Source: a virus (taxonomy: Duplodnaviria > Caudoviricetes). Taken from it: a stretch of 53,127 bases of DNA. A program made the translations under genes and the position numbers. The notes beneath the pieces are model-generated. The model had not been told where the DNA came from. It saw only the letters and a list, made by a program, of their open reading frames with translations, and made no database searches. This document shows, one piece after another, positions 9,079 to 53,127 of this stretch. The first letter of the stretch is position 1, and every line of letters begins with the position of its first letter. The stretch lies in IMG/VR virus record IMGVR_UViG_3300044675_006021, positions 1-53,127 of that record. One strand, given 5' to 3'.

Positions 9079-9083
9079 TTTTT

Positions 9084-9536: not shown

Positions 9537-9539
9537 ATA
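9532..9539 (+). promoter_or_regulatory. Late promoter CATAAATA
   Basis: 5 nt before the gp13 ATG. Confidence 0.7.
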
Positions 9540-9544
9540 TTTGT

Positions 9545-10381: not shown

Positions 10382-10382
10382 C

Positions 10383-11069: not shown

Positions 11070-11078
11070 AGGATTAAA

Positions 11079-11735: not shown

Positions 11736-11738
11736 ATT

Positions 11739-13821: not shown

Positions 13822-13825
13822 AAAG

Positions 13826-13833
13826 TATAAATA
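13826..13833 (+). promoter_or_regulatory. Late promoter TATAAATA
   Basis: Exact consensus upstream of gp18, followed by an AAGGA SD. Confidence 0.8.
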
Positions 13834-13854
13834 ATTTACATAGAAGGATAATAA

Positions 13855-28856: not shown

Positions 28857-28861
28857 AATTT

Positions 28862-33260: not shown

Positions 33261-33262
33261 GC

Positions 33263-33290
33263 TTGACTTTTCTGTAAAAAAAGATATACT
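33263..33290 (+). promoter_or_regulatory. Sigma70-like promoter
   Basis: TTGACT-16 nt-TATACT, 5 nt before the GT2 ATG. Confidence 0.65.
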
Positions 33291-33295
33291 TAGAT

Positions 33296-35578: not shown

Positions 35579-36154
35579 ATGAAAAAGTATAAAAAGAAAA
35601 AAACAAAGCCATCGGACGCAGATTATGTGAGCAATGATGAATTATATATTGCTTTGGTGGACTATAAAAAGAAGTGTGTTGACGCAGAAAACGCTGGGAG
35701 AAAAAACCCAAAGCTGCCAGATTTTATAGGTGAGTGTATATTAAAAATAGCAACACGTCTTTCTTATAGGCCAAATTTTGCAAATTATCCATATAGAGAA
35801 GAGATGGTTTCTGACGCAGTATTGAATTGCGTCACTTACATTGATAATTTTGATCCTACAAAGTCTAGCAGTCCGTTTGGATATCTAACCCAAATATGCT
35901 GGTTTTCTTTTGTTAGAATTATAAACAAAGAAAAAAAAGAAAAATACATTCAATATAAATTTGCTGAACTTCAAAATGATAAAGATTTTCATAATTGGTT
36001 CAACGAAACCTATGCTGGAATAGATATAGGTCGGAGAGATTTTTTTGGTCTTACAGATCTGGACATGCAAAGATTTGATGATATGCTTAATCCACCAAAA
36101 AAGACAAAGGTTAAAAGAACCAGAAAATCAAAGGATAATGCTCTGGATTTATGA
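35579..36154 (+). CDS. gp55: Late-transcription sigma factor gp55
   Basis: YV.N, IGEC.LKIA..LS.RPNF.NY.YREEM.SD and NFDP.KS..PF.Y.TQI...F.R.I.KEKK motifs. Confidence 0.95.
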   Translation: MKKYKKKKTKPSDADYVSNDELYIALVDYKKKCVDAENAGRKNPKLPDFIGECILKIATRLSYRPNFANYPYREEMVSDAVLNCVTYIDNFDPTKSSSPFGYLTQICWFSFVRIINKEKKEKYIQYKFAELQNDKDFHNWFNETYAGIDIGRRDFFGLTDLDMQRFDDMLNPPKKTKVKRTRKSKDNALDL

Positions 36155-37197
36155 AAGCTGTTATACTAAACGACTCACACTTTGGATATAAAGCAGATTC
36201 TCCGATTGTATTGGAATATTTTTTAAAGTTTTTTGAAGATCAGCTATTTCCGTATCTAAAAGAAAACAATATTAAAACAGTATTTCATCTGGGAGATGTT
36301 TTTGATAGGCGAAAATATGTAAACTTTCGTACTTTAAACCAAGTTCGTACTAGGTTTATGGAACCTCTCCGCGATATGGGCATTAAGTGTATTGCTATTT
36401 GCGGTAATCACGATACTTATTACAAAAACAACAACCGAGTAAATTCTTTAGATGAGTTGGTATCCCAATATGCAAACTGGGAAATTTATTCAGAACCAAT
36501 TGAAATAAACACGACAGCTGGCTGCGTAGCTCTTCTGCCCTGGATTAATCCAGAAAACGAGGAAACTGCTGCAAAATTTATTACGGAAACTACATGTAGT
36601 GTTTTGCTGGGCCATCTTGAATTGTGTGGCTTTCAGAGCATTCGTGGAATTTTTATAGAGCAAGGATATGACCCAAAACACTTTGACAAGTTTGATTATG
36701 TACTCACCGGTCATTATCATGTTAAGTCTAGTCGTGATAATATTCATTACCTGGGTACGCAGTATCAGATGGCTTTCTCGGATGTATGGGAGCCGAAGGG
36801 CTTCCACGTATTTGATTTTTCGTCTAGAGAACTTGTATTCATCCAAAATACTAGAAAACTTTTTTATACGTTTGACTATAATGAAGACGAACCGCAAAAA
36901 CTGGACTATTCGACATTCAAGGATTGCTACGTCAAGATCTTTGTCAAGAAACGGACGAAGGCTGCGCCGTTTGAGAAGTACATGGATAAGTTTTATGAGG
37001 CGGGCGTGGCGGAATTGGCTGTCACCGAGGAAGTTAGCGCAAATCCTGAGCTGGTTGCGGTGGACGTGCACAAGGACACTCTACAGTTACTACATGAGGA
37101 ACTTGGAACCATTAACGAGAAGTCAATCGACAAGCAAATGCTTGCCAAGATAATAGATGAAGCGTATAATAGTGCACTGTCAAAGGATGAAGAGTGA
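36151..37197 (+). CDS. gp47: Recombination endonuclease subunit gp47 (Mre11-like)
   Basis: D.HFG, LGDVFDRRK, GNHD, GHLE..GF and GHYH motifs. Confidence 0.95.
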   Translation: MKAVILNDSHFGYKADSPIVLEYFLKFFEDQLFPYLKENNIKTVFHLGDVFDRRKYVNFRTLNQVRTRFMEPLRDMGIKCIAICGNHDTYYKNNNRVNSLDELVSQYANWEIYSEPIEINTTAGCVALLPWINPENEETAAKFITETTCSVLLGHLELCGFQSIRGIFIEQGYDPKHFDKFDYVLTGHYHVKSSRDNIHYLGTQYQMAFSDVWEPKGFHVFDFSSRELVFIQNTRKLFYTFDYNEDEPQKLDYSTFKDCYVKIFVKKRTKAAPFEKYMDKFYEAGVAELAVTEEVSANPELVAVDVHKDTLQLLHEELGTINEKSIDKQMLAKIIDEAYNSALSKDEE

Positions 37198-38915
37198 TTG
37201 AATTTTTAACTGTTCGCTTCAAAAACTTTGGGTCATTCGGCAACAACTTTTCCGAAATAGACCTTAACACAAGAAAGACAACGCTTGTAACTGGAACCAA
37301 TGGACACGGTAAGTCTTTTGCGTTGCTTGATTCTCTTTGCTTTGGATTGTTTGGCAAGCCATTTCGTCCAATTAATATTCCCCAGCTGGTAAACAGCGTC
37401 AACGGCAAGGGTTGTGTGGTTGAGATAGAATTTAACAAGTCTGGGTCGCACTACTTGATACGTCGTGGACTATCTCCCAAGATCTTTGAGATTCATAAAA
37501 ACGGAGAGATGATTGACCAAAATGCCAAAACTAAAGATTACCAAGAAATGTTCGAGGAACAGATTCTTGGTTTTGATTATTCTGCTTTCAAGCAAGTAGT
37601 GATTCTTGGTAAGTCAAATTTTATCCCCTTCATGCAGCTGACCCCTGCGGAGCGTAGGAAGATCATCGAAGGGCTGCTGGATCTGGATATCCTAGCAGAT
37701 ATGAATCAGTATGTTAAAGGACAGCTAGGATCGCTTAAGGTTAGCATAGCCGAGAATGAGTCTTTGGTTAAGATCTCACACGAAAAGATCAAAGCACAAA
37801 AACAATTTATCGATCAGGTAAAGACGCACAATGCTGATGATATCAAACTGCTTGATGAAAAAATTGAATCATTTGAGGCCAATATCAAACTAAGCAAATC
37901 TGAAAGAAGCGAGTTTGCAAAACAACTTGAAAAACTTTTAGGGGAGCAGGCAAAGTATCAAAAGACGGTTCAGTCTTTAAAAGACGTGCCTCTAATGCTG
38001 GCAAAAACAGAAGCTTTGGAGACGACGCTAAAAGAGGAAATAGAATCTCTGAATACTTCCGCAACATGTAAATGCTGCGGACAAGAACTTCCACTAGACC
38101 AAAAGCAAAAGCATATCCAGGATAAAGAAACCAAGCTTCTAGAATGTCAAAAAGCAATAAAAATTGCGCAAGACAAAAACCAAAAACTCCTTGATGCACA
38201 AAACCAATACAATTTTTATAAAGAAGAAATCGACACGATGAACAACGATATCGTGGGAATAAATTATAGAATTGGTAACGGTGAAGAGAACGTAAAGCGA
38301 CTCCAAAAAGAAAAGAAAGACAAACAAGCATCCAGCAACATATCTTCTTTGGAAGAAAGTCTGCACAAATCTGAATCTGAAAAACAAGAACTAGCTAATA
38401 CCCTACAGGCTCACATCAATGAACAAATTCACTACGATGTTGTCTACGATATTCTCAAGGATGGCGGTCTTAAGAGCCGTATCATCAAGCATTATGTTCC
38501 CATCATCAATGGACTCGTCAACAAGTTCCTCGGAAAGCTTAATCTCTATGTTGATTTCACCATCGATGAGGAATTCAAGGAAACAATCAAGTCTAGATAC
38601 AGAGATGCATTCTCATATTCCTCTTTCTCTGAGGGAGAAAAGCAGCGTATCGATTTGGCCATACTGCTGACTTGGCGTGAGATAGCCAAGATGAAGAACA
38701 GCCTAAATTGCAACCTGCTGATCTTTGATGAGATATTGGATTCATCCTTGGATGCTTCTGGTACAGAGTCGTTCCTGAAGCTCTTAAATAAGATGAAGAA
38801 TAAGTGCTCCATCTTTATCATTAGCCATAAGGCAGATGCGCTAGTGGATAAATTTGATTCTTCTATGCAGTTTGAAAAGAAAAATAATTTTTCAAAGATC
38901 AAGACAAATATCTAA
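37194..38915 (+). CDS. gp46: Recombination endonuclease subunit gp46 (Rad50-like ATPase)
   Basis: Walker A GTNGHGKS, coiled coil with CKCC hook, signature FSEGEKQRIDLA and Walker B FDEILDSSLD. Confidence 0.96.
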   Translation: MIEFLTVRFKNFGSFGNNFSEIDLNTRKTTLVTGTNGHGKSFALLDSLCFGLFGKPFRPINIPQLVNSVNGKGCVVEIEFNKSGSHYLIRRGLSPKIFEIHKNGEMIDQNAKTKDYQEMFEEQILGFDYSAFKQVVILGKSNFIPFMQLTPAERRKIIEGLLDLDILADMNQYVKGQLGSLKVSIAENESLVKISHEKIKAQKQFIDQVKTHNADDIKLLDEKIESFEANIKLSKSERSEFAKQLEKLLGEQAKYQKTVQSLKDVPLMLAKTEALETTLKEEIESLNTSATCKCCGQELPLDQKQKHIQDKETKLLECQKAIKIAQDKNQKLLDAQNQYNFYKEEIDTMNNDIVGINYRIGNGEENVKRLQKEKKDKQASSNISSLEESLHKSESEKQELANTLQAHINEQIHYDVVYDILKDGGLKSRIIKHYVPIINGLVNKFLGKLNLYVDFTIDEEFKETIKSRYRDAFSYSSFSEGEKQRIDLAILLTWREIAKMKNSLNCNLLIFDEILDSSLDASGTESFLKLLNKMKNKCSIFIISHKADALVDKFDSSMQFEKKNNFSKIKTNI

Positions 38916-38925: not shown

Positions 38926-39210
38926 ATGTTCAGAGGACAGTTTAAATTTAAAACAACTAATGGAGCCAGCATTCGTTATAATCTTGGCGATATTGTAGTT
39001 GAGCAAGGCCGTGCGTATGAGTGCAATACACCAACGACAAAGAGCCCTCTTCAATCGCCAAATAAATGGACTTTTACTGGACTGACTGAGGTTTTTAATT
39101 CGGAAAATCCGCCAATAAATCCAATCAGAAATCAAATTTGGGTTTCGGGGAACGGCACTCAATATATTTGGTATAAAGACCCAAATGGATTCCAGTGGGT
39201 TGAAATTTGA
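38926..39210 (+). CDS. Small probable virion protein (carbohydrate-binding-like plus fibre-junction motif)
   Basis: Y..GD.V...G..Y.C.......P......W (CBM5/12-like), followed by PP.NP...QIW....G..Y.W..D.N..QWV. Confidence 0.6.
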   Translation: MFRGQFKFKTTNGASIRYNLGDIVVEQGRAYECNTPTTKSPLQSPNKWTFTGLTEVFNSENPPINPIRNQIWVSGNGTQYIWYKDPNGFQWVEI

Positions 39211-39237
39211 CTTTATAATCTTTGGAGTTAATATAAT
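39207..39237 (+). promoter_or_regulatory. Sigma70-like promoter for the gp45 operon
   Basis: TTGACT-16-TAATAT, overlapping a TATAAT. Confidence 0.55.
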
Positions 39238-39240
39238 ACT

Positions 39241-39393
39241 ATGAATGAAGACAGTTTTGAGAAGTTTACCAATCGCCGTAAGAACAAGCCATCTGGTCTC
39301 AGCAAAAAGCAACACAAAAGAAGTGTGCGTGGAAACAGACATGAGCAGAAGCAAAAACTGAACGATTCGATTTACCGTAAAGATGTTGACTAA
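39241..39393 (+). CDS. Small basic protein, 50 aa
   Basis: Not in the ORF track. Reads MNEDSFEKFTNRRKNKPSGLSKKQHKRSVRGNRHEQKQKLNDSIYRKDVD* and fills the gap before gp45. Confidence 0.6.
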   Translation: MNEDSFEKFTNRRKNKPSGLSKKQHKRSVRGNRHEQKQKLNDSIYRKDVD

Positions 39394-39413
39394 TTTACAG
39401 AAAGATTTATATT

Positions 39414-40085
39414 ATGAACACTGTGACAAAAATGAGACTAACAAAAGAAACCTATAACATTCTCAAGAACTTTGCTGCGATCAATTCAAATATCTTGATC
39501 AATCCCGGCAACGTCTTGAAGACCATGAGCGCAGGCAAGAACATCTATGCTGAGGCTACGGTTGCTGAGGATTTTGATGTTGCTGTACCCATTTGGGATC
39601 TAAACAAGTTCCTTGGAGTAATCAGCATGTTTGCAAATCCAGATTTGGAGTTTCACGACACCCATGTCGTTATCTCCAATGGCCGGTCAAGCGTGACTTA
39701 TTTCTACTCTGAGCCTACTCTATTGACTGTTCCCACCAAGGAAGTCAAGATGCCCAGAACTGCAGTCAAATTTGATTTGGATGAAAAGGATCTAAACGAG
39801 GTCCTGAAGGCAGCAAACATTCTTCAGGTTAGTGATTTTAATCTTGTTGGTGCTGATGGTAAGTTTGTTATTACCGTTGATGATTCCAGCCAGAGCACCA
39901 GCAACAGCTTTGAGATCGTATTGGATGACAACTACAATGGTCCCGATGTTGAAGGTACGATCAACGTATCTGAAATAAAGTTTATTCCGGGTTCATACAC
40001 CGTGGAGTTGACTGATACCATTATTTCTAAGTTTACGCACAAGACTCTAAACCTATCTTACTTCGTCGCAATCAAGCGGGGATAA
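39414..40085 (+). CDS. gp45: Sliding clamp gp45
   Basis: T..ILKNFA.INS.I, KNI.AEA...E.F, I.DLN.FL and K..PG.Y.V motifs. Confidence 0.95.
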   Translation: MNTVTKMRLTKETYNILKNFAAINSNILINPGNVLKTMSAGKNIYAEATVAEDFDVAVPIWDLNKFLGVISMFANPDLEFHDTHVVISNGRSSVTYFYSEPTLLTVPTKEVKMPRTAVKFDLDEKDLNEVLKAANILQVSDFNLVGADGKFVITVDDSSQSTSNSFEIVLDDNYNGPDVEGTINVSEIKFIPGSYTVELTDTIISKFTHKTLNLSYFVAIKRG

Positions 40086-40087
40086 TC

Positions 40088-41032
40088 GTGACAGACATTA
40101 ATAACTTGCTTTGGGTCGAAAAGTATCGACCTAAGACGCTGTCGGATTGCATTCTTCCTGTAGATCTTTCCGTTGTTTTTAACGGAATGGTCAAAGAGGG
40201 TACAATTCCAAACATGATGTTATACGGCAAGGCAGGCACGGGAAAGACTACGGTCGCCCGTGCCATTGCCAATGACATTGGTGCAGATAGCATAATAATC
40301 AACTGCTCCGAAGAGAATGGTATCGATACTCTTCGTACAAAGATCCGCAATTATTGCTCTACGGTATCTTTGAACGGTGGGCTGAAGGTAGTCATTCTTG
40401 ATGAGTTTGATTACGCCAATCCAAACTCTGTTCAACCGGCTTTGCGTGGTGCGATTGAGGAGTTTGCCAAGAACTGCCGATTTATCATGACCTGTAACTA
40501 CAAAAACAGAGTCATTGATCCACTTCATTCTCGGTGCACTGGCATTGACTTTACGGTTCCTGCAGCAGAAAAAGCCCAGCTTGCCATGGGAATCCTTAAG
40601 CGTGTGGAACATATCCTAACTACTGAAAAGGTTCCATATGACACGCCAGTGCTCGTCAATCTCATCAAAAAGCATTTTCCGGACATTCGCCGTACTCTTA
40701 ATGAACTTCAGCGGTATTCTTCTTCTGGAAGAATTGATGTTGGGATACTGGCACAGGGTAGCTGCGATTCCTACAAGGAACTTCTTGGATATATGAAGGC
40801 CAAGGATTTTGCATCCTGCCGTAAGTGGACGATGCAAAACATTGACCTTAACACCACAGAGTTTTTCCGAAAGCTGTATAACGAGCTCTATAATGTGCTC
40901 AAGCCAAACTCAATTCCGCAGGCAATTTTGATAATTGCTGAGTATCAGTATAAGGCTTCGTTTGCAGCCGATCAGGAAATCAATACTATGGCAATGATTG
41001 TTCAAATCATGATGGATTGTGAGTTTAACTAA
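40088..41032 (+). CDS. gp44: Clamp loader large subunit gp44
   Basis: LWVEKYRP, G.AGTGKTT, DEFD, Q.ALRG.IE.F..NCRFI.TCN and PLHSR motifs. Confidence 0.97.
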   Translation: MTDINNLLWVEKYRPKTLSDCILPVDLSVVFNGMVKEGTIPNMMLYGKAGTGKTTVARAIANDIGADSIIINCSEENGIDTLRTKIRNYCSTVSLNGGLKVVILDEFDYANPNSVQPALRGAIEEFAKNCRFIMTCNYKNRVIDPLHSRCTGIDFTVPAAEKAQLAMGILKRVEHILTTEKVPYDTPVLVNLIKKHFPDIRRTLNELQRYSSSGRIDVGILAQGSCDSYKELLGYMKAKDFASCRKWTMQNIDLNTTEFFRKLYNELYNVLKPNSIPQAILIIAEYQYKASFAADQEINTMAMIVQIMMDCEFN

Positions 41033-41412
41033 TGGAGCTTAAACACTATCTCAATAGCATCAATTATGACAAAAAAGCCTTGATGGATAACGACGAAAAA
41101 GCAGAAAAGTTATATCCGCCATATATCGTGAATCGCTGCCTGTCATTTTTTTCTGACACCATATTTCATGCAAATGTCGCAAACTGCAACTGGACATTGG
41201 ACAAAAAAATGCAGTTTGATTTTTACAGACTTTCTATCAGAAAAAATAAACGGTTTTCTCCTTGGGTTAAAAAAGAGGAAAGTGCAGATATTGACCTGGT
41301 AAAACAGGCTTATGGATATACAGAACAGAAGGCTAGAGAAGTCCTAAATATATTGCGTCCCGAGGATTTGCAAGCAATACGCAAATCTCTAGATACTGGT
41401 GGGACAAAATAA
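41032..41412 (+). CDS. gp62: Clamp loader small subunit gp62
   Basis: LNSIN..K, YPPYIVNRCLS, RK.KRFSPW and K..YGY...KA motifs. Confidence 0.93.
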   Translation: MELKHYLNSINYDKKALMDNDEKAEKLYPPYIVNRCLSFFSDTIFHANVANCNWTLDKKMQFDFYRLSIRKNKRFSPWVKKEESADIDLVKQAYGYTEQKAREVLNILRPEDLQAIRKSLDTGGTK

Positions 41413-41427
41413 TATAAGGATTGTGTC

Positions 41428-41853
41428 ATGTCTGATGTTTCTAAGAATGTATTTAATGGTGTTGGAGTGCACATAAAATTATTAGATGATGAAGACTTCA
41501 TGGTAGTCCGTGAAACCTTATCTCGTATTGGTGTTTCTCCAAAGGGAAAAAACATATTGTATCAATCATGCCATCTTATCCATAAAGATGGCGTTTATGT
41601 TTTGGCACACTTCAAAGAATTGTTTGCTTTGGATGGCCTTCCTTCAAATGTCTCCGAAGAAGACATAAAACGTAGAAATGCCATAGCAAAACTTCTTGAA
41701 GAGTGGGAACTACTTGAAGTCGTGGACAAAGAAAAAATAAAAGAATCCATGGCAATCAATGGTTTAAAGATCATTAAATATACTGAAAAAGACAAATGGC
41801 AGTTGATACCGAAATTTAACACTGGTTCGTTGAGAAAATTTTTTAATTCATAA
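41428..41853 (+). CDS. regA: Translational repressor RegA
   Basis: DF..VRETLSRIGV, LYQSCH..HK.G.Y...HFKELFALDG, RRN.IA.LL.EW.L and W.L.PK motifs. Confidence 0.95.
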   Translation: MSDVSKNVFNGVGVHIKLLDDEDFMVVRETLSRIGVSPKGKNILYQSCHLIHKDGVYVLAHFKELFALDGLPSNVSEEDIKRRNAIAKLLEEWELLEVVDKEKIKESMAINGLKIIKYTEKDKWQLIPKFNTGSLRKFFNS

Positions 41854-41855
41854 GG

Positions 41856-43079
41856 ATGAAAATGCACAAATTAACACTTGCTATGATCGTCAAAAACGAA
41901 GCCCCAAACATTGAAAGATGTTTGGCTTCATGCGCCCCATTTATTGATTATTATGTAATCTGCGATACTGGTTCGACAGATAACACAAAAGAAATCATTA
42001 AAAACTTCTTTGATTCGAAGGGAATCCAGGGCGAGATCCATGACCATGAATGGTCCGATTTCGGAACCAACAGGTCAAAGGCACTTGAACTCTGCTTGGG
42101 TAAGACCAAGTGGGCTATGATGATTGATGCCGATGACTTTATTACCGGTACATTGCCCGTAAATAGTTTTGACGATAGCCTTGACGGTTATGTCGTAAAT
42201 ATCAGACGGGGTGAATTCCAGTGGCTGCGTGCACAAATTTTTAATCTTGCCAAGAAAAAGTGGTGGTATGAAGAGCCATTGCACGAATATGCAATGTGCG
42301 AACAGCCAATGAACGTGCAGCGCCTTGATGGAGACTATGCTTGGGAAGTTAGAACTGAGGGATGCCGGTCTCGGTCTTCGGCAAATGACATTGAAAAGTA
42401 CACCAAGGATTACCATGTCCTGAAGTCGTTCCTTGAAAAGGACCCAAATCAACCAAGAAAGCAATTCTATGCAGCGCAATCGGCATTTGATGCAAGGATG
42501 TATGATGTTGCTGAAAAGGAATATCTTGCTCGGGTTGCATTGGGTGCATGGCACGAAGAAGTTTTCTTTTCCTGGATGCGCATTGGAATGTGCCGAGAAT
42601 TTATAGGCAAACCAGTTGAACAAGTTGCAGATGCCTTTATGATGGCATTTGAAACTGCACCAAACCGTGTTGAGCCTCTATACCACCTTTCTTGCATCTA
42701 TAGAAAGCATAACAGGCCGAGAAATGCCTTCTTGGTAGCTTCTCTTGGTTTGACTATCCCAGTTCCAGAGAACGATATTCTGTTCGTGGATAAGGCGAAT
42801 TATAATTGGGGCATCTATGACGAAATTGCCACAACAGCGTATTATATCGGTCGCCCACATGTTGGTGTCGGTGCATGTGAAAAACTGCTTAAGGATTCCA
42901 ATCTTCCATCTGAACATAGAGAAAGAGTTTCAAATAACTACAAAATTTATGTCCAAGCCATGCACCAAATGCAACAGGCAATGATGGAACAGCAAAAAAT
43001 TTGGGCAGACAAAGTGGCAAAAGAATCCAATAAAACCACTTTAAATATCACGCCCGAGATGGCAAATTTAAAACTATAA
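41856..43079 (+). CDS. GT2 glycosyltransferase with C-terminal TPR repeats
   Basis: MIVKNE...I.RCL.S, DTGSTD.T, W.DF..NR, DAD, LHE, then a TPR-like region (FY.AQS, Y..R, A....P.R.EPLY). Confidence 0.9.
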   Translation: MKMHKLTLAMIVKNEAPNIERCLASCAPFIDYYVICDTGSTDNTKEIIKNFFDSKGIQGEIHDHEWSDFGTNRSKALELCLGKTKWAMMIDADDFITGTLPVNSFDDSLDGYVVNIRRGEFQWLRAQIFNLAKKKWWYEEPLHEYAMCEQPMNVQRLDGDYAWEVRTEGCRSRSSANDIEKYTKDYHVLKSFLEKDPNQPRKQFYAAQSAFDARMYDVAEKEYLARVALGAWHEEVFFSWMRIGMCREFIGKPVEQVADAFMMAFETAPNRVEPLYHLSCIYRKHNRPRNAFLVASLGLTIPVPENDILFVDKANYNWGIYDEIATTAYYIGRPHVGVGACEKLLKDSNLPSEHRERVSNNYKIYVQAMHQMQQAMMEQQKIWADKVAKESNKTTLNITPEMANLKL

Positions 43080-43094
43080 TCAAAATTTAGTTGT

Positions 43095-43102
43095 CCTAAA
43101 TA
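43095..43102 (+). promoter_or_regulatory. Late promoter CCTAAATA heading the fibre operon
   Basis: TAAATA core in the intergenic gap. Confidence 0.6.
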
Positions 43103-43112
43103 TAGGAGAATC

Positions 43113-43140
43113 AATAATAGCCCGTAAAAAGGCTATTATT
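43113..43140. other. Perfect 10-bp stem-loop in the leader
   Basis: AATAATAGCC-cgtaaaaa-GGCTATTATT. Confidence 0.75.
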
Positions 43141-43158
43141 ATTTGGAGAATCTTCTAG

Positions 43159-43557
43159 ATGTCAGACACCTTCAACCCTACGGCAGTAAAAGGCGATACA
43201 ATAAGCTGGGTTTTAAATTTAACCGGTCCTACGGGTGGAACCTATGACATTGGTGGTTGTACTTTTAATATGCAGGTAAGAAAAAGTTATCACCCTAGCG
43301 GATTGTTGGTTTCTTACGTGCTGCATGTAGAGGATGGTGATCCAGTAGTTCCAGCCAATGGTGTTGAAGGTGGCTTGGCTGCAAGTGCAACAGGTGGAAT
43401 TTTGTATGTGACAATAGGATCCACCTATTCACAGCATTTTTCTCAATATTCTTCATCTTTCTATGATATTCAGATGCAGTACCCAAATAATGGAGGTGTT
43501 ATCACCCTCCTCCGAGGAAGTATTGAAACTCTACCAGACGTAACTATACCACACTAA
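43159..43557 (+). CDS. Probable virion adaptor protein (BppU-like Ig fold)
   Basis: GDT, D..G.T..MQVR, G...V.I, YDIQ and LL.G.....PDVT motifs typical of the small gene preceding phage fibres. Confidence 0.65.
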
Positions 43558-43558
43558 T

Positions 43559-46500
43559 ATGGCAAGCACCAGCAGAACAATAAATGTAGAAGTAAACTCA
43601 ACACCTTATGCCGTTCAAGGTGCACGGGGAAATACCGGACCAACGGGACCAATTGGCCCAACAGGTCCCAGTTTCCCGCTGATGAATTTTACAGGAACTG
43701 TTGTTGTAAGTTACGGTTCCGCTTCAACGGTTACAGTAGATTCTTCTTATGGCGCCAATGCGTTTCAAATCGGAACTGTAATTAAAGTAAATTTTCCAGT
43801 TCTTGGAACGTTTCTTTATGGTGAAATTACAGCTTACGTCGGAACATCTCTGACTTTTAGACAAGTTAGTGGTACTGCAGTGGCTGCTTCTACGGCAACA
43901 TCTGGAACCATTGTTTTTGGTGCAACCTCACCAGATTTTGACACAGCTGTTCAAGTTCAGGTATCACAGGTTGCCAATGTAGGAACTTCGTATTACATTC
44001 CATTAGTTAGTGCATGTGGTGCCCAGTCCATATTTATTGATGCCAATGTCCTTCCATTAAGTTATATACCAAGTACATCATCCTTGCTATGTAATAATAT
44101 TGCTCTTGGAAATAAAAACGTTGGATTTGAATTTCTTAAAATTACAACAACTGAGATAAATTCAAATGATTTCTTTTATTTTATCTCGCAAAATGGTTTG
44201 TATTGCCAAGATAAAAATTTAGTTCAAATGGGAGACGTGACGGTTGAAAACTATGGAACCGTCATGGAAGTTTTGGGTGCAACATCTAATAACTTAGTTA
44301 AAATAAGAAATCAAGATGCTTCTGATACAACTCTAGCAATAAACAGAGATAGCGCTGATCCAAGAACCCATGCTCTTGAAATTAATAAGAGTGATGGAAA
44401 AGCCATAAAATTAATTTATAACGATGTAACAGACGGTGCACCTGATAATGTTCTACTAGAAGTAGGTAGCACGGGTTCATTTATAATTAACCCATCTGGA
44501 AGCTTAACCACAATTACAGGCGATCTATCTGTTTTGGGTGGCTATACCGGAAATCTTGTCACAAGCTTGAATAGTTTGGTTGGTGCTTTAAATCTAAGTG
44601 CTGGTCCAAATATTGGTATTACATCTGATAATGGTATAATTACTATTTCTGCGGTTGGGGGTCTAACTAGCGGAGTTTATGAATTAAATGGATTAAGTGG
44701 TGCTATAAATCTTGTTGCAGGAATGAATATCGGAATTACAGTTTCCGGTAATAATATTGAAATTTTATCAACAGGTGGCACTGGCAGTACTGGAAATACG
44801 GGTCCTACAGGACCACAGGGTCCACAAGGTAACACGGGCGCAACTGGTGAACAGGGCCCGCAAGGAAACACCGGTGCAACTGGTGAACAAGGTCCACAGG
44901 GGAACACAGGTGCAACTGGCAACCAAGGTCCTCAAGGCAATACCGGTAATACTGGGGCAACTGGCGCACCCGGAAATACTGGAGCCACTGGTGATCAAGG
45001 ACCACAGGGAAACACTGGTGCAACTGGTAATCAGGGACCACAGGGAAATACTGGTAATACTGGAGCAACTGGTTCACAAGGACCTCAAGGTAATACTGGT
45101 GCTACTGGTAATCCCGGACCACAAGGCCCCACTGGTGCAACTGGTTTAGCTGGAGATATCTTTTCTTCTACATCGACAACAGGAATTACTTTAGCTTCTA
45201 TAACTACAGGAAGTCAAGTTTCCTTAAATGTCGGTCCAGATTTAGCATATAGTCGTGTGCAGGATGTCTTAGTTGCTGCTGGTCTATCACAGTTTTTTAC
45301 AGCTACTGTAATAACATATGGCGGTGAAACTTTAACAGTACAAGTTTCTGGCGTTTGTGGATCAAACTTCTTTAATTCTTGGGATGTTAACCTTGCAGGT
45401 GCAGTTGGTCAGGCTGGACCACAGGGGCCACAAGGCAACACTGGTAATGCTGGTATACAAGGAAATACCGGTAATACTGGTGCTACAGGTGGAACAGGCC
45501 CACAAGGAAATACCGGTAATACAGGTAATACGGGTCCTACAGGAAATACTGGAAATACCGGGCTCCAAGGAAATACTGGCGCATCATATCTTGCACGAAC
45601 AACTACGCTTCAAGGCACAATAAGTGAACTCGTTAATCAAAATTTTGCTGGACCTTTCACTACGGCTAGATTCTTACCATATTCCGTTGGCGATAATGTC
45701 TTATGTTCTTCCATTTCAAACCCCACGAGGTGGATCATAGCGCCAGTAAGCGCATACAACCCGACAAATGGATCAATGACTATTTCTCCAATTTTGAGAA
45801 ATAGCGGCCCAGACGGAACTCTAATTACTAGCTGGTCTATAAATTTAACAGGCATACCAGGAATTACTGGTGCAACTGGTGCAACTGGTGCACAAGGCAA
45901 TACAGGCAATACCGGAAATACTGGACCGACCGGTCCACGCGGTAATACGGGAAATGATGGATTAAGTCCAACAAATTTCGTAGAATCTTTTAATGGATTA
46001 ACTGGTAGTGTATTTGGTGTTTCTTCAATCAATGGAGCAACGGGATCATTTCAAGTTGTAACATCTGTAAATGGTGCAACAGGAGCAGTCGAAAATGTTG
46101 CTAGACTAAATGTATCTCAAGACTTTACGTCTCAGCCTACATTTAGAAATGCGTTTACAATCCAAGCTCCATCTCCTGCGCCACTACTATCTGGTGGTCT
46201 CACTGCAAGCATAAACTTTAATACTCTATATGCACCAACACTGCAATATTACAATGAACCTTTTCAAAGTATTATTGTTCCTGCCGGAGGCGGTGCCGTA
46301 AATGTTGATCTAGCCGTTGCTCAGGTATTCTCGTTGCTTTTAAATGATAACATTACACAATTTAATATTCTGAATACTCCCCAAACAAACGACAGAACAA
46401 TTGGATTTACATTGATATTGCAGATGAATACTCCAAATAGAACTGTAAACTGGGGATCAAAAGTTCGCTGGCCAAATGGAATTGCACCTACTCTGAGCAG

Positions 46501-46594
46501 TCTACAAAAAATTGACGTGTTCTCATTCTTGACTATCGACAAGGGTGTTTCTTGGTTGGCATTTGTCGGTGGTCAAAACTTTGCAGGATCATAA
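43559..46594 (+). CDS. Collagen-like fibre protein 1 (1011 aa)
   Basis: Long G-X-Y tracts (GPQGNTGAT), repeated globular modules and NG.TG repeats. C-terminal W...V.WP.G.APTLS...DVFSF.T.D.G..W.A...GQNF fibre-tip domain. Confidence 0.85.
44790..45150 (+). repeat. Imperfect 36/45-bp tandem coding repeats ([12 protein letters not shown])
   Basis: Repeated ggNccacaRggNaaYacNggtgcaactgg units. Confidence 0.85.
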
Positions 46595-46601
46595 AAACTG
46601 A

Positions 46602-46609
46602 TATAAATA
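46602..46609 (+). promoter_or_regulatory. Late promoter TATAAATA
   Basis: Exact consensus before fibre protein 2. Confidence 0.8.
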
Positions 46610-46618
46610 TATTACTCC

Positions 46619-49303
46619 ATGGAAGACATCATTAATGTAACAGTATATGAAACACCATATGGTGTTGCGGGGCCGCAAGGTCCACAGGGTAGCACTGGTG
46701 CAACTGGACCACAGGGTCCAGCTGGTCCAACTGGAGCACAAGGTGATCCTGGATCTGTCGGTCCACCCGGACCTCCTGGAAATATTGGTCCAGAAGGACC
46801 ACAAGGACCAGAAGGACCTATTGGAAATACTGGGCCCCAAGGTGAAATAGGCCCAACTGGACCACAGGGGAATACTGGAGCTTGTGGTGATATATACCGA
46901 AGTACATCTAACACCACTGTAAATTTAAGTGCCATTACTTTTGGTAGTGTAGTTCAACTAAATGTTGGGGCAAACTATGCTTATAGCAAAGTTCAGACAA
47001 TTTTGGTTGCAAATGATACTTCAAATTATTTTACTGGTTTGGTCAATGGATACTCTGGCCAAACACTTTCTATTCAAGTAGATGGTGTGACTGGTTCTGG
47101 TAGTTTTTCTTCTTGGGACGTAAACCTTGCTGGAGCTGTTGGGCAGGCCGGACCACAAGGTGCACAAGGCAATACCGGTGCAACAGGAGCACAGGGAAAC
47201 ACGGGAAATACTCCGACAGAATATGTCGCCAGTTTCAATGGACTTACTGGCAATGTGTTTGGTGTTCCCAGTATAAACGGCAGCACTGCTGCAGCAGAAG
47301 TAGTTTCTACATTGAATGGAATGACTGGAACAATAACAAATGTTGCTTTCAGAAATATAGGAAATACATTTAGCGTAGACCAGCAGGTAAGTTACGCAAA
47401 TAGAGTAACTACCATTTCAAATAATTCAATTGTATTCAATAATAGTCTAACAGGTATAACCAGAACTATAAACTATTCTTCTCTAGGATTAACAGTTACG
47501 CAGATTACAATACCAGGAGAAAGTGGAACAATTGCTCTAACCTCCGGTGTTGTAAGTTCTTTCAATGGAAAGACGGGCGGTATTCAAGGGCTTGAATTGG
47601 TTACTGCTGGTGCCGGAATGAGTCTTTCCGGACAAACCGGAAGCGTAATATTCCAGAATACAGGAGTACTGCGCTTCAATGGATTGTCAGGTGGAATTAC
47701 TCTTGCGGCTGGTTCAAATATTGGATTGACTACCGATGGAAATGTTATAACCATTTCTTCAACCGGTTCTTCGGGCGGAACTTCTGGTGTAGAATCATTC
47801 AACGGATTTACGGGTGCAGTAACGGGAGTAAGCAATCTAGTTGCATCAACCGGAATTTTTGTATCTGGAGCTACTGGAAATATAACTGTATCGAATACAG
47901 GTGTTAGAACTCTTTCCGGTCAAGCCAGTCAGGTATCAGTTTCTGGATCTACAGGTGATGTTATTGTTTCTTTGCCAACAAGCATAATCAATATTAATTC
48001 TATATCGGCTGAAGAAGATACCAATTTGCTTTTAAACAGCACCGACAGTCTGATACCTTCACAAAATACAACTTTGACTTTAGGTGCAGCCGGAATTACT
48101 TCTAGCAGATCAGTCTCCATCGTAGGAAACCTAAAAGTAAGTGGTTCTTATGAAGGAAGAGTTGTCAGATCCTTCAATGGAATAACCGGAGCTGTACAGG
48201 GAGTGTGTGCGGCATTTGCAGGCACCGGAATTGGTTTGTCGGGAACTACCGGAAATATAACAATATCCAACCTCGGTGTACTTTCCATGACTTTGGGAAT
48301 AGGAAGAAATGCCGCTTTAGGTCCAGGTGTTGGTGCTGGATTGAATATTTCTGGAACAACTGGAAATATTACACTAGAGTATTATGGAATTAGGAGACTC
48401 TCTACACTTCAAGGTCTAACATTGAATCCTCCTGGTGGTACTGGTATCGTCACAATAGTTAATACGGGACTGTGGAGTCTTAATGGTTTGTCTTTTGGCA
48501 ATGCAAATATTGTGGGTTCTACTGGAATATCCGTAACAGTTCCTTCTTCGACTCAGATTTCTATTGAAAATTCTGGAGTTCTTTCTGTAAACGGACAAAC
48601 TGGCGACGTTACCGTATCTAGCGCAGCATCAGGTGTAACGGATGGCAGCGCCATAATATGGAATCTGAGACCTCTTGGAAATACGACAGGTGATTTGATT
48701 GCCTATAGCGGAAACAGCTGGTCCGTAACACCAAGAGATTATGTAACAACTCCCAGTATTTGGCAGACTGTTCCGGATTCAACAAATCAATACCCCTCAT
48801 CAAAATATTCAGCTAGCGGCGATTCAGTAAATGTAAACGGTGCGTCCGGCAATGGCTTTGTATTGGGTGAATTGGTTCAAATCAGTTTATGGACACAAGA
48901 TCCAAATGCAGGAATTACTTTAAATTCCGGAACATGGTGGTTAAATTATACTGTTTATGACGATAGTTTTGGTGGAAATCCTGGAACATTGCTTGGAGCA
49001 TTTTCTGGGTTGACTTTAGTATCCGCACCCAGACACTTCCAACCTCAAGTTTCCCATTCGGGTGATGTTATGGGATTTGCCTTAAAGGTTCGTGGTTCCA
49101 CTTACAACGCCTTTGATGGGCGTGGTGGCCCTTACGGAAACACTGGATGTACGCTAGACCCCAACCAAAAGCCGTTAAACCCAAGTGATCCATGTGCTTC
49201 AAACGGTATTGAAGAATGGACCATATGTACACAGCCTGTTCGTGGATTCACTTACAATGGTTGCTATTATGCAGATGGATGCGGGGACCCAATATGCCCC
49301 TAA
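46619..49303 (+). CDS. Collagen-like fibre protein 2 (894 aa)
   Basis: N-terminal G-X-Y tract, a module shared with fibre 1, many V.S.NG.TG and N.GV repeats, and a Cys-rich C-terminus. Confidence 0.85.
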
Positions 49304-49306
49304 ATA
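49299..49306 (+). promoter_or_regulatory. Late promoter CCTAAATA
   Basis: Overlaps the stop codon, 10 nt before the next ATG. Confidence 0.6.
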
Positions 49307-49316
49307 GTATAAACTA

Positions 49317-51524
49317 ATGTTCTTCGGAAAGAACAAAACATCCCTAAAACTGGCAAAACAGCACCCAGAACTGCTGATGGGGTGTGAGTATTTCATTGTA
49401 GAACAGGTAGAGAATCCAAAAAAAATAAAAATTGGTTCTGGTCTGACTCAATTATTACTAAAAAACTCCGATGGTGAAGAATACATCATCGAAGGAAACT
49501 CATCCAAAATCAAGGAATATTTTGTTCCAACAATGGCATTTGAATATCTAAACGGCAAATTAGTAAAAGTAAAGCACGCAGTAGGATCTCTTTTCCAAAA
49601 TCAGATTCTAAAAGAAGTTGCTCCTTGTAAGTATGATGAAAAAATTCAGCTGGGAATTGGCATCACTGAACATTATTTCATACAAAAAGACACAAACAAA
49701 GTAATAAAAGTTTATGGCAATTCCAAGCAAATTAAAAATTTGTTTGAGGAAATTGTAACTCCAAATAAACAAGCCGTCCAAATTCAACCAATACAAAATT
49801 CCGTTGGTCAAGTTTCCTTGACTGAAGATGCTTCAGGACAAAGCATTCAGATAAAGGGCGTGAAGGGAGATAAGGGTGACCGTGGTGAAGTTGGTCCACG
49901 TGGACTGGTTGGCCCAATGGGCCCAAAAGGCCCAGAAGGAGAACAAGGAGAAGTTGGCCCCCAAGGACCAAAAGGCGATAAGGGCGACAAAGGAGATGTT
50001 GGCGAACGAGGTTTGGTTGGACTGCGTGGGCCAAAGGGAGAAAAAGGTGACCGTGGAGATGCTGGACCGCAAGGCCCACAGGGACCTGATGGACCACAAG
50101 GAAAAGATGGAAAAGACGGTAAGGATGGAGCTCGGGGTCCAATCGGACTACCCGGACAAAACGGAGCTCCCGGAGCACGTGGTCCAGAAGGTGTTCCAGG
50201 AAAAGATGGTAGGGATGGAAAAGATGGAATATCACCGGTAATTTCTGCAAATTATCCTTTAATTTTAGAAGACGGTACTTTAAGTTTTGATTCTGACAAG
50301 TTTACTAAAGTACTTGATCATTTTAAAAACACAGATATTCAGAACGCCATTAATAAACTTTCCACCGCAATTCCTACAGGTGGCGGTGCGGTAGGAATCA
50401 AAGAAGATGGTAATAGGATTATTAAATCTGTAAGCGATATTAACTTTACAGGTTCTGGAGTCTCGGTTACTCGCCAAGGCAAAAATGTTACCGTTGATAT
50501 TTCCGGTGGAGGTGGACCTGGAGGCGGGGTTTCGCAAATAACGGCAGGACCCGGAATAACTTTAGATCCATCCGGTGGTACGGGTGTTGTACAAATTTCT
50601 AGTTTGGCTACTGTAAAAGGCACCCCAGGAATGTTGCAGTTGGCTGCAGCCAACGGGGATCTGGAAGTCAATACTGGTTTGATTTTGGATCCAATATCAG
50701 CTCAATTAAGTGTTCCGAACGGATTAAAAATATCTTCAGGTTTGCCAGAGTCTTATATTGAATTTGCCGATGGGACTACGCAGGGCACAGCAATGCTCCG
50801 AGGAAATACAGGTGCAACTGGACCAGCTGGACCTACCGGATCACAAGGAAGTACGGGATCAGCTGGTGCTACGGGATCTCAAGGTCCACAAGGAAATACT
50901 GGACCAGCTGGACCTACTGGTTCACAAGGTCCTCAAGGAAACACCGGTGCTACGGGATCACAAGGTCCACAAGGAAATACTGGACCAGCTGGACCTACTG
51001 GTCCCCAAGGGCCTCAAGGAAACACTGGTGCTACTGGACCAGCTGGCCCCGCTGGTGCTGGAGGAACTTATTATTATCAATTAACTGCACCAACAGGCCC
51101 CGGAATCACAATGGGGTTCCGCTGGATGGCTTCCGATACTGGTATTGAATATGTTTATATTAATGATGGTAATAGTAATCAGTGGGTTCAACCAACAAAT
51201 ACCGGAGGTTCTAGCACAACTTCAATTTCTATTCTTGCAACTACTGGTGTTACTGGTGCAACATACGCAGCTCTTTCTTCCGATTATTATATCGGAGTAA
51301 GTTACGCAGGTCCCGTTACTATAACTCTTCCAACCAACCCAGAAACAGGAAGAGAAATTGTGGTCAAGGATGAATCTGGAAATGCAGGAAACGGAGTCAA
51401 TCGTCAGATCACGATTGTCGGAGCCACTGCATCTCATAAGATAGACAATCAAAGTTCAGCAATAATAAATTTAGACAACGCTGGTCTGCATTTTATCTAC
51501 AGATCCGGCTGGAGAATAATATAA
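49317..51524 (+). CDS. Collagen-like protein 3 (735 aa)
   Basis: Charged G-X-Y tract ([15 protein letters not shown]), a second Thr-rich G-X-Y tract, and a C-terminal DYYIGV...TITLP....G....VKDESG.A....ITI domain. Confidence 0.85.
50865..51037 (+). repeat. 81-bp tandem duplication inside the collagen tract
   Basis: ggtgctacgggatcNcaaggtccacaaggaaatactggaccagctggacctactggt... starts at 50865 and 50946, with a partial third copy at 51027. Confidence 0.85.
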
Positions 51525-52759
51525 TGTCATACTTATACAATGATTTAGTAGGTTTCAAGGGAAATGTGGTTGATGCGTTTAATCGACTAAAAGTTAGCAA
51601 TCCTTTTACCTTATTTGACAGTCAGCAAAGATATACACTCAGTGATAAATGGAATTATGTTGGAGTAAGTGGCGGCACATATTCATTTAATCCAGTAGAA
51701 AGCACGGTATCTCTAACTTCAGGAACTACAAGTGGTTCTAAGATGTATGTTGAAACTAAAAGGGTGTTTCCATACCAGCCGGGAAAATCTTTGACTATTG
51801 TTGATTCGTTTGCAATGGCTCAACCAAAAAGTGGATTACGTCAACGGGTTGGATATTTTGGTATAACAGGTGGTGTTACAGCTGGAACGCCATATAACGG
51901 AGTATATCTACAGCAAGATGGATTGACGTTGTCAGTTTGCTTGACATCTGCTTCACTCGGAACCACACAAACGGTAACACAATCAAATTGGAATGGTGAC
52001 AAATTTGATGGAACTGGTGATTCTGGTGTTACGATAGATGTAACAAAAGGGAATATTTTTTGGCTAGACGTTGAATGGTTGGGTGTGGGTGATGTCCGCA
52101 CTGGATTCTTTATAGATGGTAAACCTGTTGTGGCACACACATTTTATAATACAAATAAAAATTCAACAACCTATATGTCAACTGCATGTTTGCCTTTGCG
52201 ATACGAGATTGAAAATACTGCTGGACAAACAGGCAGCAGTACCATGAGACAAATTTGTTCAACGATATTGTCTGAAGGTGGATATGAAGGATTCAGCAGA
52301 AGATACAACGTAACTCATAGTGGAACTACACCCCATACTTTAACAACAGCAGGAACTCAATATCCACTGGTTGCAATACGATTGGCCCCCGATAGATTGG
52401 ATAGTATTATTGTGCCGTCAAATATTAGTGTGGCAATAGAGCCGGATACAAACAACAAACCATTAGTAGTGCAATACAGAATTTTATTAAATCCAACTTT
52501 AACGGGAAACACGTGGGCAACACATTTCAATGGAAATGTTCAATATAATGTTACGGCTACGGGAGTTACTGGCGGAACTGATATTATAGGTGGATATATA
52601 AGTAGCAGCGGAACCTTGGATGTATCTTCCATAAATGATTTCAATTTTCAAATAGGAAGAACACAACTGGGAGTAAGCGATACATTTGTTCTCGTACTGG
52701 TTCCTACGGAAAATGGCACAGAAGGTTATACCGACCTTTCATGGTTTGAAATCATATAA
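51524..52759 (+). CDS. Probable virion structural protein (beta-rich, lectin-like)
   Basis: DAF.RL.VS.P.TLFDS, YQPGKS, WN.D..DGTG.SG and WLGVG.VR.GF motifs of a widespread phage family; part of the late operon. Confidence 0.7.
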   Translation: MSYLYNDLVGFKGNVVDAFNRLKVSNPFTLFDSQQRYTLSDKWNYVGVSGGTYSFNPVESTVSLTSGTTSGSKMYVETKRVFPYQPGKSLTIVDSFAMAQPKSGLRQRVGYFGITGGVTAGTPYNGVYLQQDGLTLSVCLTSASLGTTQTVTQSNWNGDKFDGTGDSGVTIDVTKGNIFWLDVEWLGVGDVRTGFFIDGKPVVAHTFYNTNKNSTTYMSTACLPLRYEIENTAGQTGSSTMRQICSTILSEGGYEGFSRRYNVTHSGTTPHTLTTAGTQYPLVAIRLAPDRLDSIIVPSNISVAIEPDTNNKPLVVQYRILLNPTLTGNTWATHFNGNVQYNVTATGVTGGTDIIGGYISSSGTLDVSSINDFNFQIGRTQLGVSDTFVLVLVPTENGTEGYTDLSWFEII

Positions 52760-52762
52760 ATA
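52755..52762 (+). promoter_or_regulatory. Late promoter TATAAATA
   Basis: Exact consensus, 7 nt before the ATG. Confidence 0.75.
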
Positions 52763-52769
52763 TTAAGAC

Positions 52770-53033
52770 ATGCCATTAGATTTTCCTCCATCCCCATCAC
52801 TAAACGAAATTTACACCTTTGGTGGTAGTTCTTGGATCTGGAATGGCAGCGCATGGAATGTTTATAGCACCACAGCGGTTGTAAATACCCTAAATGGACT
52901 TACTGGTACAGTAGGTCTTTCTGCCGGAAGTGGTATTACGTTAACTTCTGCAGGAAATACAATTACAATTTCTGCTTCTGGTGGTGGGGGAGTAGACGAA
53001 GCATTCGTAATCGCTATGGCAACTGTACTATAA
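52770..53033 (+). CDS. Small fibre-like protein (87 aa)
   Basis: FP.SP.....YT.....W.WNG.AW module, an NGLTG repeat and a C-terminal IAMA..L motif. Confidence 0.7.
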   Translation: MPLDFPPSPSLNEIYTFGGSSWIWNGSAWNVYSTTAVVNTLNGLTGTVGLSAGSGITLTSAGNTITISASGGGGVDEAFVIAMATVL

Positions 53034-53036
53034 ATA
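53029..53036 (+). promoter_or_regulatory. Late promoter TATAAATA
   Basis: Exact consensus overlapping the stop codon. Confidence 0.7.
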
Positions 53037-53049
53037 TAGGGGATACTAA

Positions 53050-53127
53050 ATGAAACAATTACTAGGCCAAGATACGTCAGGAACTTACACTTTTAACCCA
53101 ACTGCAAAGACAGTAACCTTTTCAGGA
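53050..53127 (+). CDS. Partial late gene (truncated by the window end)
   Basis: MKQLLGQDTSGTYTFNPTAKTVTFSG..., after a late promoter and an AGGGG SD. Confidence 0.65.
   Translation, partial: MKQLLGQDTSGTYTFNPTAKTVTFSG

Follow-up and report, generated by a model that had tools for sequence, protein, structure and literature searches.

What is a glycosyltransferase (GT) gene doing between the translational repressor of a phage replication gene cluster and a block of collagen-like fibre genes? The question is raised by IMG/VR record IMGVR_UViG_3300044675_006021, a linear fragment of 53,127 bases with an estimated completeness of 30%; the whole record was analyzed and is called the window below. 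Its source is an uncultured T4-like myovirus without a close relative in culture: identity of its gp44 to the proteins from pelagimyophage Mosig, Methylophilales phage Melnitz and cyanomyoviruses is no more than about 54%, and megablast of window positions 39000-53127 against isolated phages gave no match. The GT in question is a 407-residue protein that joins a GT2 catalytic domain to helices resembling tetratricopeptide repeats (TPR). From comparative sequence analysis, we propose, with a probability of roughly 60%, that this GT2-TPR enzyme is an O-glycosyltransferase that primes the phage's own threonine-rich collagen-like fibres, similar in function to SgtA of C. difficile while phylogenetically distinct from it. 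The features on which this proposal turns are as follows.

41428-41853, plus strand: regA translational repressor (Pfam Translat_reg 1.3e-36; phrog_242 8e-46)
41856-43079, plus strand: GT2-TPR glycosyltransferase, 407 amino acids, with a GT-A domain at about residues 1-165 and a TPR-like helical domain at about residues 178-391
43159-43557, plus strand: Ig-like beta-sandwich protein, 132 amino acids (phrog_1084; AlphaFold2 predicted local distance difference test score, pLDDT, 88)
43559-46594, plus strand: collagen-like fibre protein 1, 1011 amino acids (Pfam Collagen 3.7e-33, 113.5 bits)
46619-49303, plus strand: collagen-like fibre protein 2, 894 amino acids (Pfam Collagen 3.5e-13, 49.5 bits)
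49317-51524, plus strand: collagen-like fibre protein 3, 735 amino acids (Pfam Collagen 5.8e-32, 109.7 bits)

A sequence-only reading of this DNA had placed a GT2-TPR gene after regA, and the position and architecture both hold. The 407-residue open reading frame (ORF) begins 2 bases past the regA stop, and Pfam GT2 matches its residues 9-97 (6e-12). Across an alignment of 18 homologues, reaching down to 41% identity, the DTGSTD and IDADD (DXD) motifs are invariant, as are residues D37, D42, D91, D93 and D94. Profile searches of the PDB returned GmaR (2e-17), SunS (2e-11) and ThuS (2e-9). The AlphaFold2 model (pLDDT 86.1) comprises a beta/alpha/beta GT-A core over residues 1-165 and an all-helical half over residues 178-391, and Foldseek ranked SunS and ThuS first along the full length of the model (E 4e-15 and 1e-14, TM-score 0.57). 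Though a Pfam scan of the enzyme (E<=0.01) found no TPR, profile positions 179-316 match consensus-TPR proteins (7obi 1.2e-6, 9qhb 5.5e-5, 8bu0 3e-4), and the helical half of the model retrieved the CTPR structure 9qhc (3.6e-6) and the TPR domain of OGT, 1w3b (6.8e-6). Because of these profile and fold matches, the GT2-TPR label is correct; Pfam TPR is itself detected in the homologues L109 and L110. A hydropathy scan of the GT found no transmembrane-like segment. By sequence and predicted fold, the protein is a soluble, metal-dependent GT-A glycosyltransferase, kin to peptide and protein glycosyltransferases.

The three fibre ORFs are collagen-like proteins by Pfam Collagen (PF01391), all of them scoring above the 27.2-bit cut-off. 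Their G-X-Y blocks run to at most 43 triplets, a length reached at residues 406-534 of fibre protein 1, and a hydropathy scan of the fibre proteins found no membrane-like segment. Fibre gene 1 encodes 83 triplets in four blocks (GNT 25, GPQ 12, GAT 12, GPT 6) with threonine at 57% of the Y positions, and residues 912-1008 at its C-terminal end match the tail fiber family phrog_9017 (4e-18). Dominance of GNT, GAT and GPT triplets had been claimed for all three genes and is borne out for this one only: gene 2 has 39 triplets (GPQ 7, GNT 6) with threonine at 31% of Y positions, and gene 3 has 72 triplets, of which a charged block of 42 rich in Lys, Asp and Arg lacks threonine and a second block of 30 is rich in Thr and Gln, for 18% threonine overall. 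The claim that the fibre genes follow the GT immediately also needs amending, since three collagen-like genes do lie downstream on the same strand but the 132-residue ORF stands between, and fibre gene 1 starts 480 nucleotides (nt) past the GT stop.

This arrangement has a bacterial parallel. C. difficile SgtA is described as a 358-residue protein, GT-A at residues 1-260 followed by four TPRs, whose gene lies immediately upstream of bclA3; in vitro, SgtA transfers beta-O-GlcNAc from UDP-GlcNAc onto Thr/Ser of GPT collagen-region peptides with Mn2+ (PMC7157674). Like SgtA, the phage GT is one soluble chain, GT-A at the N-terminus and TPR-like repeats at the C-terminus; its gene precedes G-X-Thr-rich collagen-like genes on the same strand, and it is proposed to prime threonine O-glycosylation. 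It differs in being longer, in falling outside the clade that fits SgtA and in being virus-encoded within a replication cluster, and it would act on fibres of the virion where SgtA modifies proteins of the spore surface.

SunS and ThuS (PDB 7msn, 7msk), the best full-length structural matches, likewise combine GT-A with a helical TPR-like domain. They are S-glycosyltransferases of glycocins, and the gene for their peptide substrate is their neighbor. The phage GT is only 15-16% identical to them, and their small, Cys-containing bacteriocin-precursor substrates were not seen here. The best sequence match is GmaR, the Listeria flagellin O-GlcNAc transferase (PDB 22ao), but that match is limited to the N-terminal 116 residues and no flagellin gene is present here. 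GmaR also has the GT2-TPR architecture and acts on a fibre-forming protein; its second role, as an anti-repressor, has no counterpart here. As for viruses, virion glycosylation was reportedly found in mycobacteriophages by Freeman et al. 2023, with capsid and tail-tube C-termini as the targets, and giant viruses bear glycosylated collagen-like fibrils. In both cases, as proposed here, virus-encoded transferases would decorate the virus particle itself; the targets proposed here are collagen repeats, unlike the capsid and tail-tube C-termini of mycobacteriophages.

A number of observations weigh against fibres as the substrate. The GT is translationally coupled to regA within the replication gene cluster, not to the fibre genes. 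A scan of IMG/VR with the GT gave 78 loci at 43-89% identity, and in 78/78 the GT is closely preceded by regA in the same orientation, making regA, not collagen, the constant neighbor. In one group, clade ii (L060-L077, 43-48% identity), the GT follows regA and precedes a dUTPase-like gene, two small ORFs, a DNA methyltransferase and gp43, and inspection of 6 of the roughly 20 loci found no G-X-Y ORF downstream of the GT. The clade ii records G001 (86% complete) and G003 (25%) do have collagen genes, at a distance of about 22 kb from the GT, and none was found in the other 3 of 5 clade ii records, which are fragments 11-42% complete. Record G010, a 29% fragment, has a collagen gene and no GT within the fragment. 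Finally, the GT scores 36.2 bits against the 350-bit cut-off of the SunS equivalog model (NCBIfam TIGR04195), over its N-terminal 91 residues only. Simple GT-collagen adjacency was rejected as proof on account of the constant regA link and the clade ii loci.

The same two facts favor a rival explanation, in which the GT is a protein glycosyltransferase for some other substrate: a different virion protein, an early phage protein, host flagellin or a secreted peptide. The solved relatives of the enzyme do act on flagellin or glycocin peptides. However, no glycocin-like or flagellin gene was found beside the GT in the phage loci read, and for this reason and those given below we consider this explanation unlikely, if well short of negligible.

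In the clade closest to the window, five loci with long flanks (L015, L034, L035, L043 and L049) have a dUTPase-like gene after the fibre block. A gp43 homologue also follows the block in 4/5 of them, with none in the L034 flank. This order suggests that the fibre module is a variable insertion separating the GT from gp43. Some loci are irregular. At L041:10001-11227 the GT reads as two ORFs (114 and 257 amino acids) and the downstream region is broken into short ORFs, suggesting a decayed copy or a poor assembly, and at L066:823-1854 about 600 extra bases separate regA from the GT, the sole such case among the 78 loci.

Since adjacency was weakened as an argument, wider tests of co-occurrence were run, a check that the sequence-only reading had itself proposed for phage genomes and that turned out positive. 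PF01391 scores above cut-off in 4/4 unrelated GT-positive phages, the Tunturiibacter phage Tunturi_5, LR756502, PaBG and LR756501. The collagen gene of Tunturi_5 (a 1474-residue 'tail fiber') is 4 kb from the GT, and the distance is 6.5 kb in LR756502 and 17 kb in PaBG; LR756501 has many collagen copies. Among GT-negative phages, the T4-like isolates S-RIM12, Mosig, Melnitz, S-ShM2, P-TIM40 and DLP_6 reach the cut-off in 0/6 cases and jumbo phages in 2/5 (phiKZ marginally, and Bacillus phage G). The overall comparison is thus 4/4 against 2/11, for controls that were few and hand-picked and, among the T4-like isolates, called GT-negative by tblastn at E<=1e-5. In a separate, unbiased sample seeded with gp44 alone, the GT follows regA in 43/59 loci with at least 2.5 kb of downstream sequence, and collagen ORFs are present in 36/36 GT-positive loci with at least 6 kb downstream.

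Altogether, 10/13 GT-positive phage records examined have collagen genes, the three without being the clade ii fragments noted above, and this count argues against a different protein substrate. Threonine is frequent at Y in the collagens of G001 (0.79), Tunturi_5 (0.62) and LR756502 (0.50-0.53), and occurs there at 0.31 in LR756501, 0.21 in G003 and at most 0.26 in PaBG. We also note that in Tunturi_5 (L089) a gene annotated 'nucleotidyltransferase' precedes the GT, and that the stretch from the GT homologue to the collagen-like tail fibre is occupied by four tandem 'hypothetical' ORFs of about 850 bp each (7391-10809).

A third group, clade iii (G006-G008), separates the two associations. 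Its gp44 is 60-61% identical and its GT 39% identical to those of the window, and the GT has moved off regA, to about 16 kb away in G006. The gene order is SDR epimerase, GT, a 148-residue ORF and collagen fibres, with threonine at 0.47-0.64 of Y positions; at L268, TATAAATA occurs about 30 nt before the GT. The GT-fibre link therefore survives loss of the regA link, a point against some other protein as the substrate. Upstream of the GT in G006 are sulfotransferase, transketolase-like and RpiB-like genes, so that sugar genes, GT and fibres form a contiguous run on a single strand. Among the genes of the sugar block, at L269 (G006:C1) 8659-14595, are one of the sulfotransferase family, one that is transketolase-N-like and an RpiB-like fusion, a hint of sulfated or unusual sugars.

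Bacterial relatives show the same pairing. Scanning one genome per species gave 573 confirmed GT relatives; locus counts use the best 80, with a collagen-like ORF defined by at least 14 G-X-Y triplets. Such an ORF lies within 8 kb in 24/80 loci (in 20 of these 24 no more than 1.5 kb away, usually in the GT's own orientation) and in 15/28 loci whose homology spans the TPR half. At 21/24 of the collagen-positive loci, at least one such ORF has threonine at Y at a frequency of at least 0.44. Only 4/14 whole control genomes have Pfam Collagen at all, and by rough estimate the density of collagen genes near the bacterial GT relatives is far above background. The other 56/80 loci have no collagen-like ORF nearby, a further point for a different protein substrate.

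We then placed the enzymes on quick IQ-TREE trees, with support from the SH-like approximate likelihood ratio test (SH-aLRT) only. Bacterial rows were omitted if the match ended short of residue 250 of the query or if the ORF was longer than 450 amino acids; in the second tree, L109 was re-entered as its first 400 residues and the PaBG homologue (22% identity, very long branch) was left out. A bacterial clade of 26 enzymes of 350-385 amino acids (SH-aLRT 99), of which 15 are collagen-adjacent, fits the published description of SgtA. All phage GTs fall with L109-L113 in a separate clade (SH-aLRT 99-100), apart from the SgtA-like one, and within it L110, L111 and L113 have no collagen in their flanks. 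By this placement the phage GT is not an SgtA orthologue, the SgtA clade being recognized by size and gene context, not by the SgtA sequence. The collagen-adjacent label requires 6-7 changes along the tree, compared with an average of 13 after shuffling, and 0/500 shuffles were as low.

The best cellular match, L109 from a Pyrinomonadaceae metagenome-assembled genome, falls in the phage clade. L109:7980-10520 encodes an 846-residue GT2-TPR-GT2 fusion. Upstream of it, across about 0.8 kb that holds one 252-residue ORF, lies a Pfam-Collagen gene (7e-33), and a GT1-type gene comes after the fusion. A 1819-residue LysM-repeat protein is also encoded upstream of the fusion, and the whole has the look of a compact bacterial glyco-collagen cluster. 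From these comparisons in phages and bacteria, the pairing of GT2-TPR with Thr-rich collagen that the sequence-only reading likened to SgtA-BclA3 is supported.

Could the acceptor instead be something other than protein? Under this explanation the GT would modify phage DNA against restriction, a host wall polymer in the manner of the teichoic acid enzymes TarS, TarP and RmlT, or lipopolysaccharide. The gene does sit in a DNA replication cluster, and in Foldseek TarS, TarP and RmlT rank next after SunS and ThuS (E 8e-8 to 1e-6). Published readings of aquatic phage GTs also point to host O-chains or DNA: pelagimyophage GTs in the tail-fibre hypervariable region are read as modifiers of the host O-chain (PMC7029224), and cyanophage GTs as modifiers of the host surface or DNA (PMC12801897). 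However, the TarS, TarP and RmlT matches are to the GT-A catalytic domain, at TM-scores of 0.28-0.34 against 0.57 for full-length SunS and ThuS. Moreover, a non-protein acceptor leaves the TPR domain and the family-wide collagen pairing unexplained, and the GT has no detected membrane segment. We therefore consider it very improbable.

Under the favored reading, priming of collagen-like fibres, the TPR-like domain would grip the protein substrate in the cytoplasm of the infected cell, and the GT would use a nucleotide sugar to attach the first sugar residue to Thr, and perhaps Ser, of the G-X-Thr repeats. This transfer would take place before or during trimerization of the fibres and their joining to the virion via the Ig-like 132-residue protein. 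Acceptor, donor sugar and timing are all inferred. The best fold matches of the 132-residue ORF are tail-tip and baseplate chains of T5/DT57C of about 140 residues (E 8e-6, TM-score 0.6), probably the T5 collar protein that serves as the attachment point of the side fibres. Many generic Ig domains are also among its matches. In clade iii, an ORF weakly similar to it (28% identity, E 0.004) is likewise found between GT and collagen. The 132-residue protein is probably a virion adaptor for the fibres.

Timing of expression bears on the same proposal, and the following signals lie around the GT and fibre genes.

41344-41350, plus strand: CTAAATA, T4-late-promoter-like, within the 3' end of gp62 and 84 nt before the regA start
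43096-43102, plus strand: CTAAATA, late-promoter-like, in the spacer that separates the GT from the 132-residue ORF, 63 nt ahead of that ORF
43108-43144, plus strand: conserved A/T-rich hairpin immediately ahead of the 132-residue ORF's ribosome-binding site
46602-46609, plus strand: TATAAATA, late-promoter-like motif 17 nt before fibre gene 2
49300-49306, plus strand: CTAAATA, late-promoter-like motif 17 nt before fibre gene 3

The CTAAATA at 41344 is a possible late promoter for regA and the GT. A [CT]TAAATA motif occurs at fixed distances within 200 nt upstream of regA in 69/77 related loci; counting against this, the motif before regA is coding sequence and its conservation could partly reflect protein constraint. 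Clade ii has a second [CT]TAAATA copy about 48 nt before the GT. Read by eye in the 19 relatives displayed (of 78 loci), the CTAAATA between the GT and the 132-residue ORF is kept in 18/19, and an inverted repeat at the hairpin position is visible in 13/19. The hairpin itself has a predicted RNA fold of -11.7 kcal/mol (z -3.7), and 0/200 shuffles were as good. Late-promoter-like motifs also precede a 94-residue ORF, fibre genes 2 and 3 and an 87-residue ORF by 14-17 nt (the two further ORFs are listed below), and the starts of genes in the major capsid region by 13-37 nt. Counts in the window are not above chance (6 against 5.7 expected for TATAAATA; 9 against 12.6 for CTAAATA), and only placement and conservation are suggestive of function. 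A sigma-70 promoter scan gave 38 hits against 35 expected, and a terminator scan 16 against 11, neither being informative. The placement of the motifs fits late expression of the GT.

Which sugars would follow the first one? A candidate source lies upstream in the window.

25626-34975, plus strand: sugar island of 12 ORFs, 28-29% GC against 38-44% around it

In order, ORFs 1-6 are GT25-like (weak), a GalE-like SDR, GT11, a 312-residue ORF without assignment, an FkbM methyltransferase and GT17, and ORFs 7-12 are DUF3431 (weak), Methyltransf_24, a PseB/FnlA-like dehydratase, an RmlD-like reductase, GT2 and an RmlB-like dehydratase. The GalE-, PseB/FnlA-, RmlD- and RmlB-like proteins make four sugar-nucleotide enzymes of SDR type. 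Pfam was run on all 12 ORFs and NCBIfam on 9 of 12; in the latter, FkbM scored above cut-off and the GalE-, PseB/FnlA-, RmlD- and RmlB-like proteins all fell below their equivalog cut-offs. The island had been described as complete. It is real and low in GC, but completeness is not established because these scans found no sugar-1-phosphate nucleotidyltransferase and no RmlC-type epimerase.

The island may well have nothing to do with the GT2-TPR enzyme or the fibres, and serve to remodel the host surface or to some other end; we put this at a little under an even chance. It lies 6.9 kb from the GT with six replication and repair genes between, its low GC suggests recent transfer, and such islands have been interpreted in this way in the publications cited above. 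Nor are its genes conserved: relatives have other genes at the site, where only an SDR paralogue recurs (22-45% identity), and one relative locus has an RmlB-like gene at 84% identity. Because the island genes are mostly absent from relatives, no co-inheritance of island and GT can be claimed. The site itself is hypervariable and directly precedes gp47 and a 191-residue ORF that is conserved. In clade ii, sugar genes are found instead downstream of gp43 (L075:18365-20644 and L060:18395-20816), where N-terminal sequences read by eye look RmlA-like and SDR-like, with further transferase-looking ORFs.

Other evidence runs counter to an unrelated island. Pfam scans of its ORFs found no flippase, polymerase or lipid-carrier priming transferase, and a segment resembling a transmembrane helix (19 residues, mean Kyte-Doolittle at least 1.6) occurs in 0/12 ORFs and in neither of the two ORFs after them, so the membrane components of a lipid-carrier O-antigen or lipopolysaccharide cluster were found in none of the 12. 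The absence of membrane-like segments from island, GT and fibres fits stepwise protein glycosylation in the cytoplasm better than lipid-carrier O-antigen assembly, with the proviso that the missing membrane steps could come from host enzymes. In clade iii, moreover, the block of SDR, sulfotransferase, RpiB-like and transketolase-like genes is contiguous with the GT and fibres, and the L109 enzyme is fused to a second GT2. A part for the island in fibre glycans is thus only suggested, by this contiguity in one sister clade. That the island of the window extends the first sugar on the fibres is a tentative idea that we think doubtful; since its content is not shared by relatives in the flanks seen, a role in elongation is hypothesis only.

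A broader proposal joins all three elements into a virion glyco-fibre system of aquatic T4-like and other large phages, made of a conserved priming GT2-TPR, a fast-swapping soluble sugar island and Thr-rich collagen fibres. In such a system the island, with its sugar-nucleotide, transferase, methyltransferase and sulfotransferase genes, would build a strain-specific glycan on the primer, and the fibres would be hypervariable. We hold this three-part version to be possible and, on present evidence, rather unlikely. The exosporium-like nap of the sequence-only reading, with its roles in shielding and mimicry, is speculation.

The remaining genes of the region complete the picture; gp47, gp46, gp45, gp44 and gp62 are named from position and similarity.

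36151-37197, plus strand: gp47
37194-38915, plus strand: gp46
38926-39210, plus strand: 94-residue ORF between gp46 and gp45
39414-40085, plus strand: gp45
40088-41032, plus strand: gp44
41032-41412, plus strand: gp62
51524-52759, plus strand: virion structural protein, 411 amino acids (phrog_1645 8e-98)
52770-53033, plus strand: 87-residue ORF with fibre-type Gly/Thr/Ser repeats and TATAAATA upstream at 52755

The 94-residue ORF has a weak match to the carbohydrate-binding family CBM5/12 (3.5e-4, below cut-off), is preceded by CTAAATA 14 nt upstream and is found at 37-61% identity in most close relatives. The 411-residue protein is about 39-40% identical to proteins of cyanomyoviruses and phage HMO-2011 labelled 'virion structural protein' or 'hypothetical protein'.

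A literature search, supplements not covered, found no paper linking a GT2-TPR enzyme to phage collagen-like fibres. The GT-collagen arrangement is widespread, and the priming hypothesis is directly testable with two genes; the GT is also a possible tool for O-glycosylating designed collagen peptides. The glycosyltransferases and sugar islands of marine and freshwater myoviruses are commonly taken to modify the host O-antigen or to glucosylate DNA (PMC7029224, PMC12801897). If the priming reading is true, part of the glycosyltransferase and sugar gene content of aquatic myoviruses would be virion chemistry, and an abundant group of aquatic phages would join mycobacteriophages and giant viruses as cases of virion glycosylation. 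Host range would then have a post-translational layer that is invisible to sequence-based host prediction. Should the three-part version also be true, the virus particle, not the host cell, would be what these 'LPS-like' islands decorate, and glycans on the fibres would act as an unseen factor in host recognition, particle stability or escape from grazers and defences.

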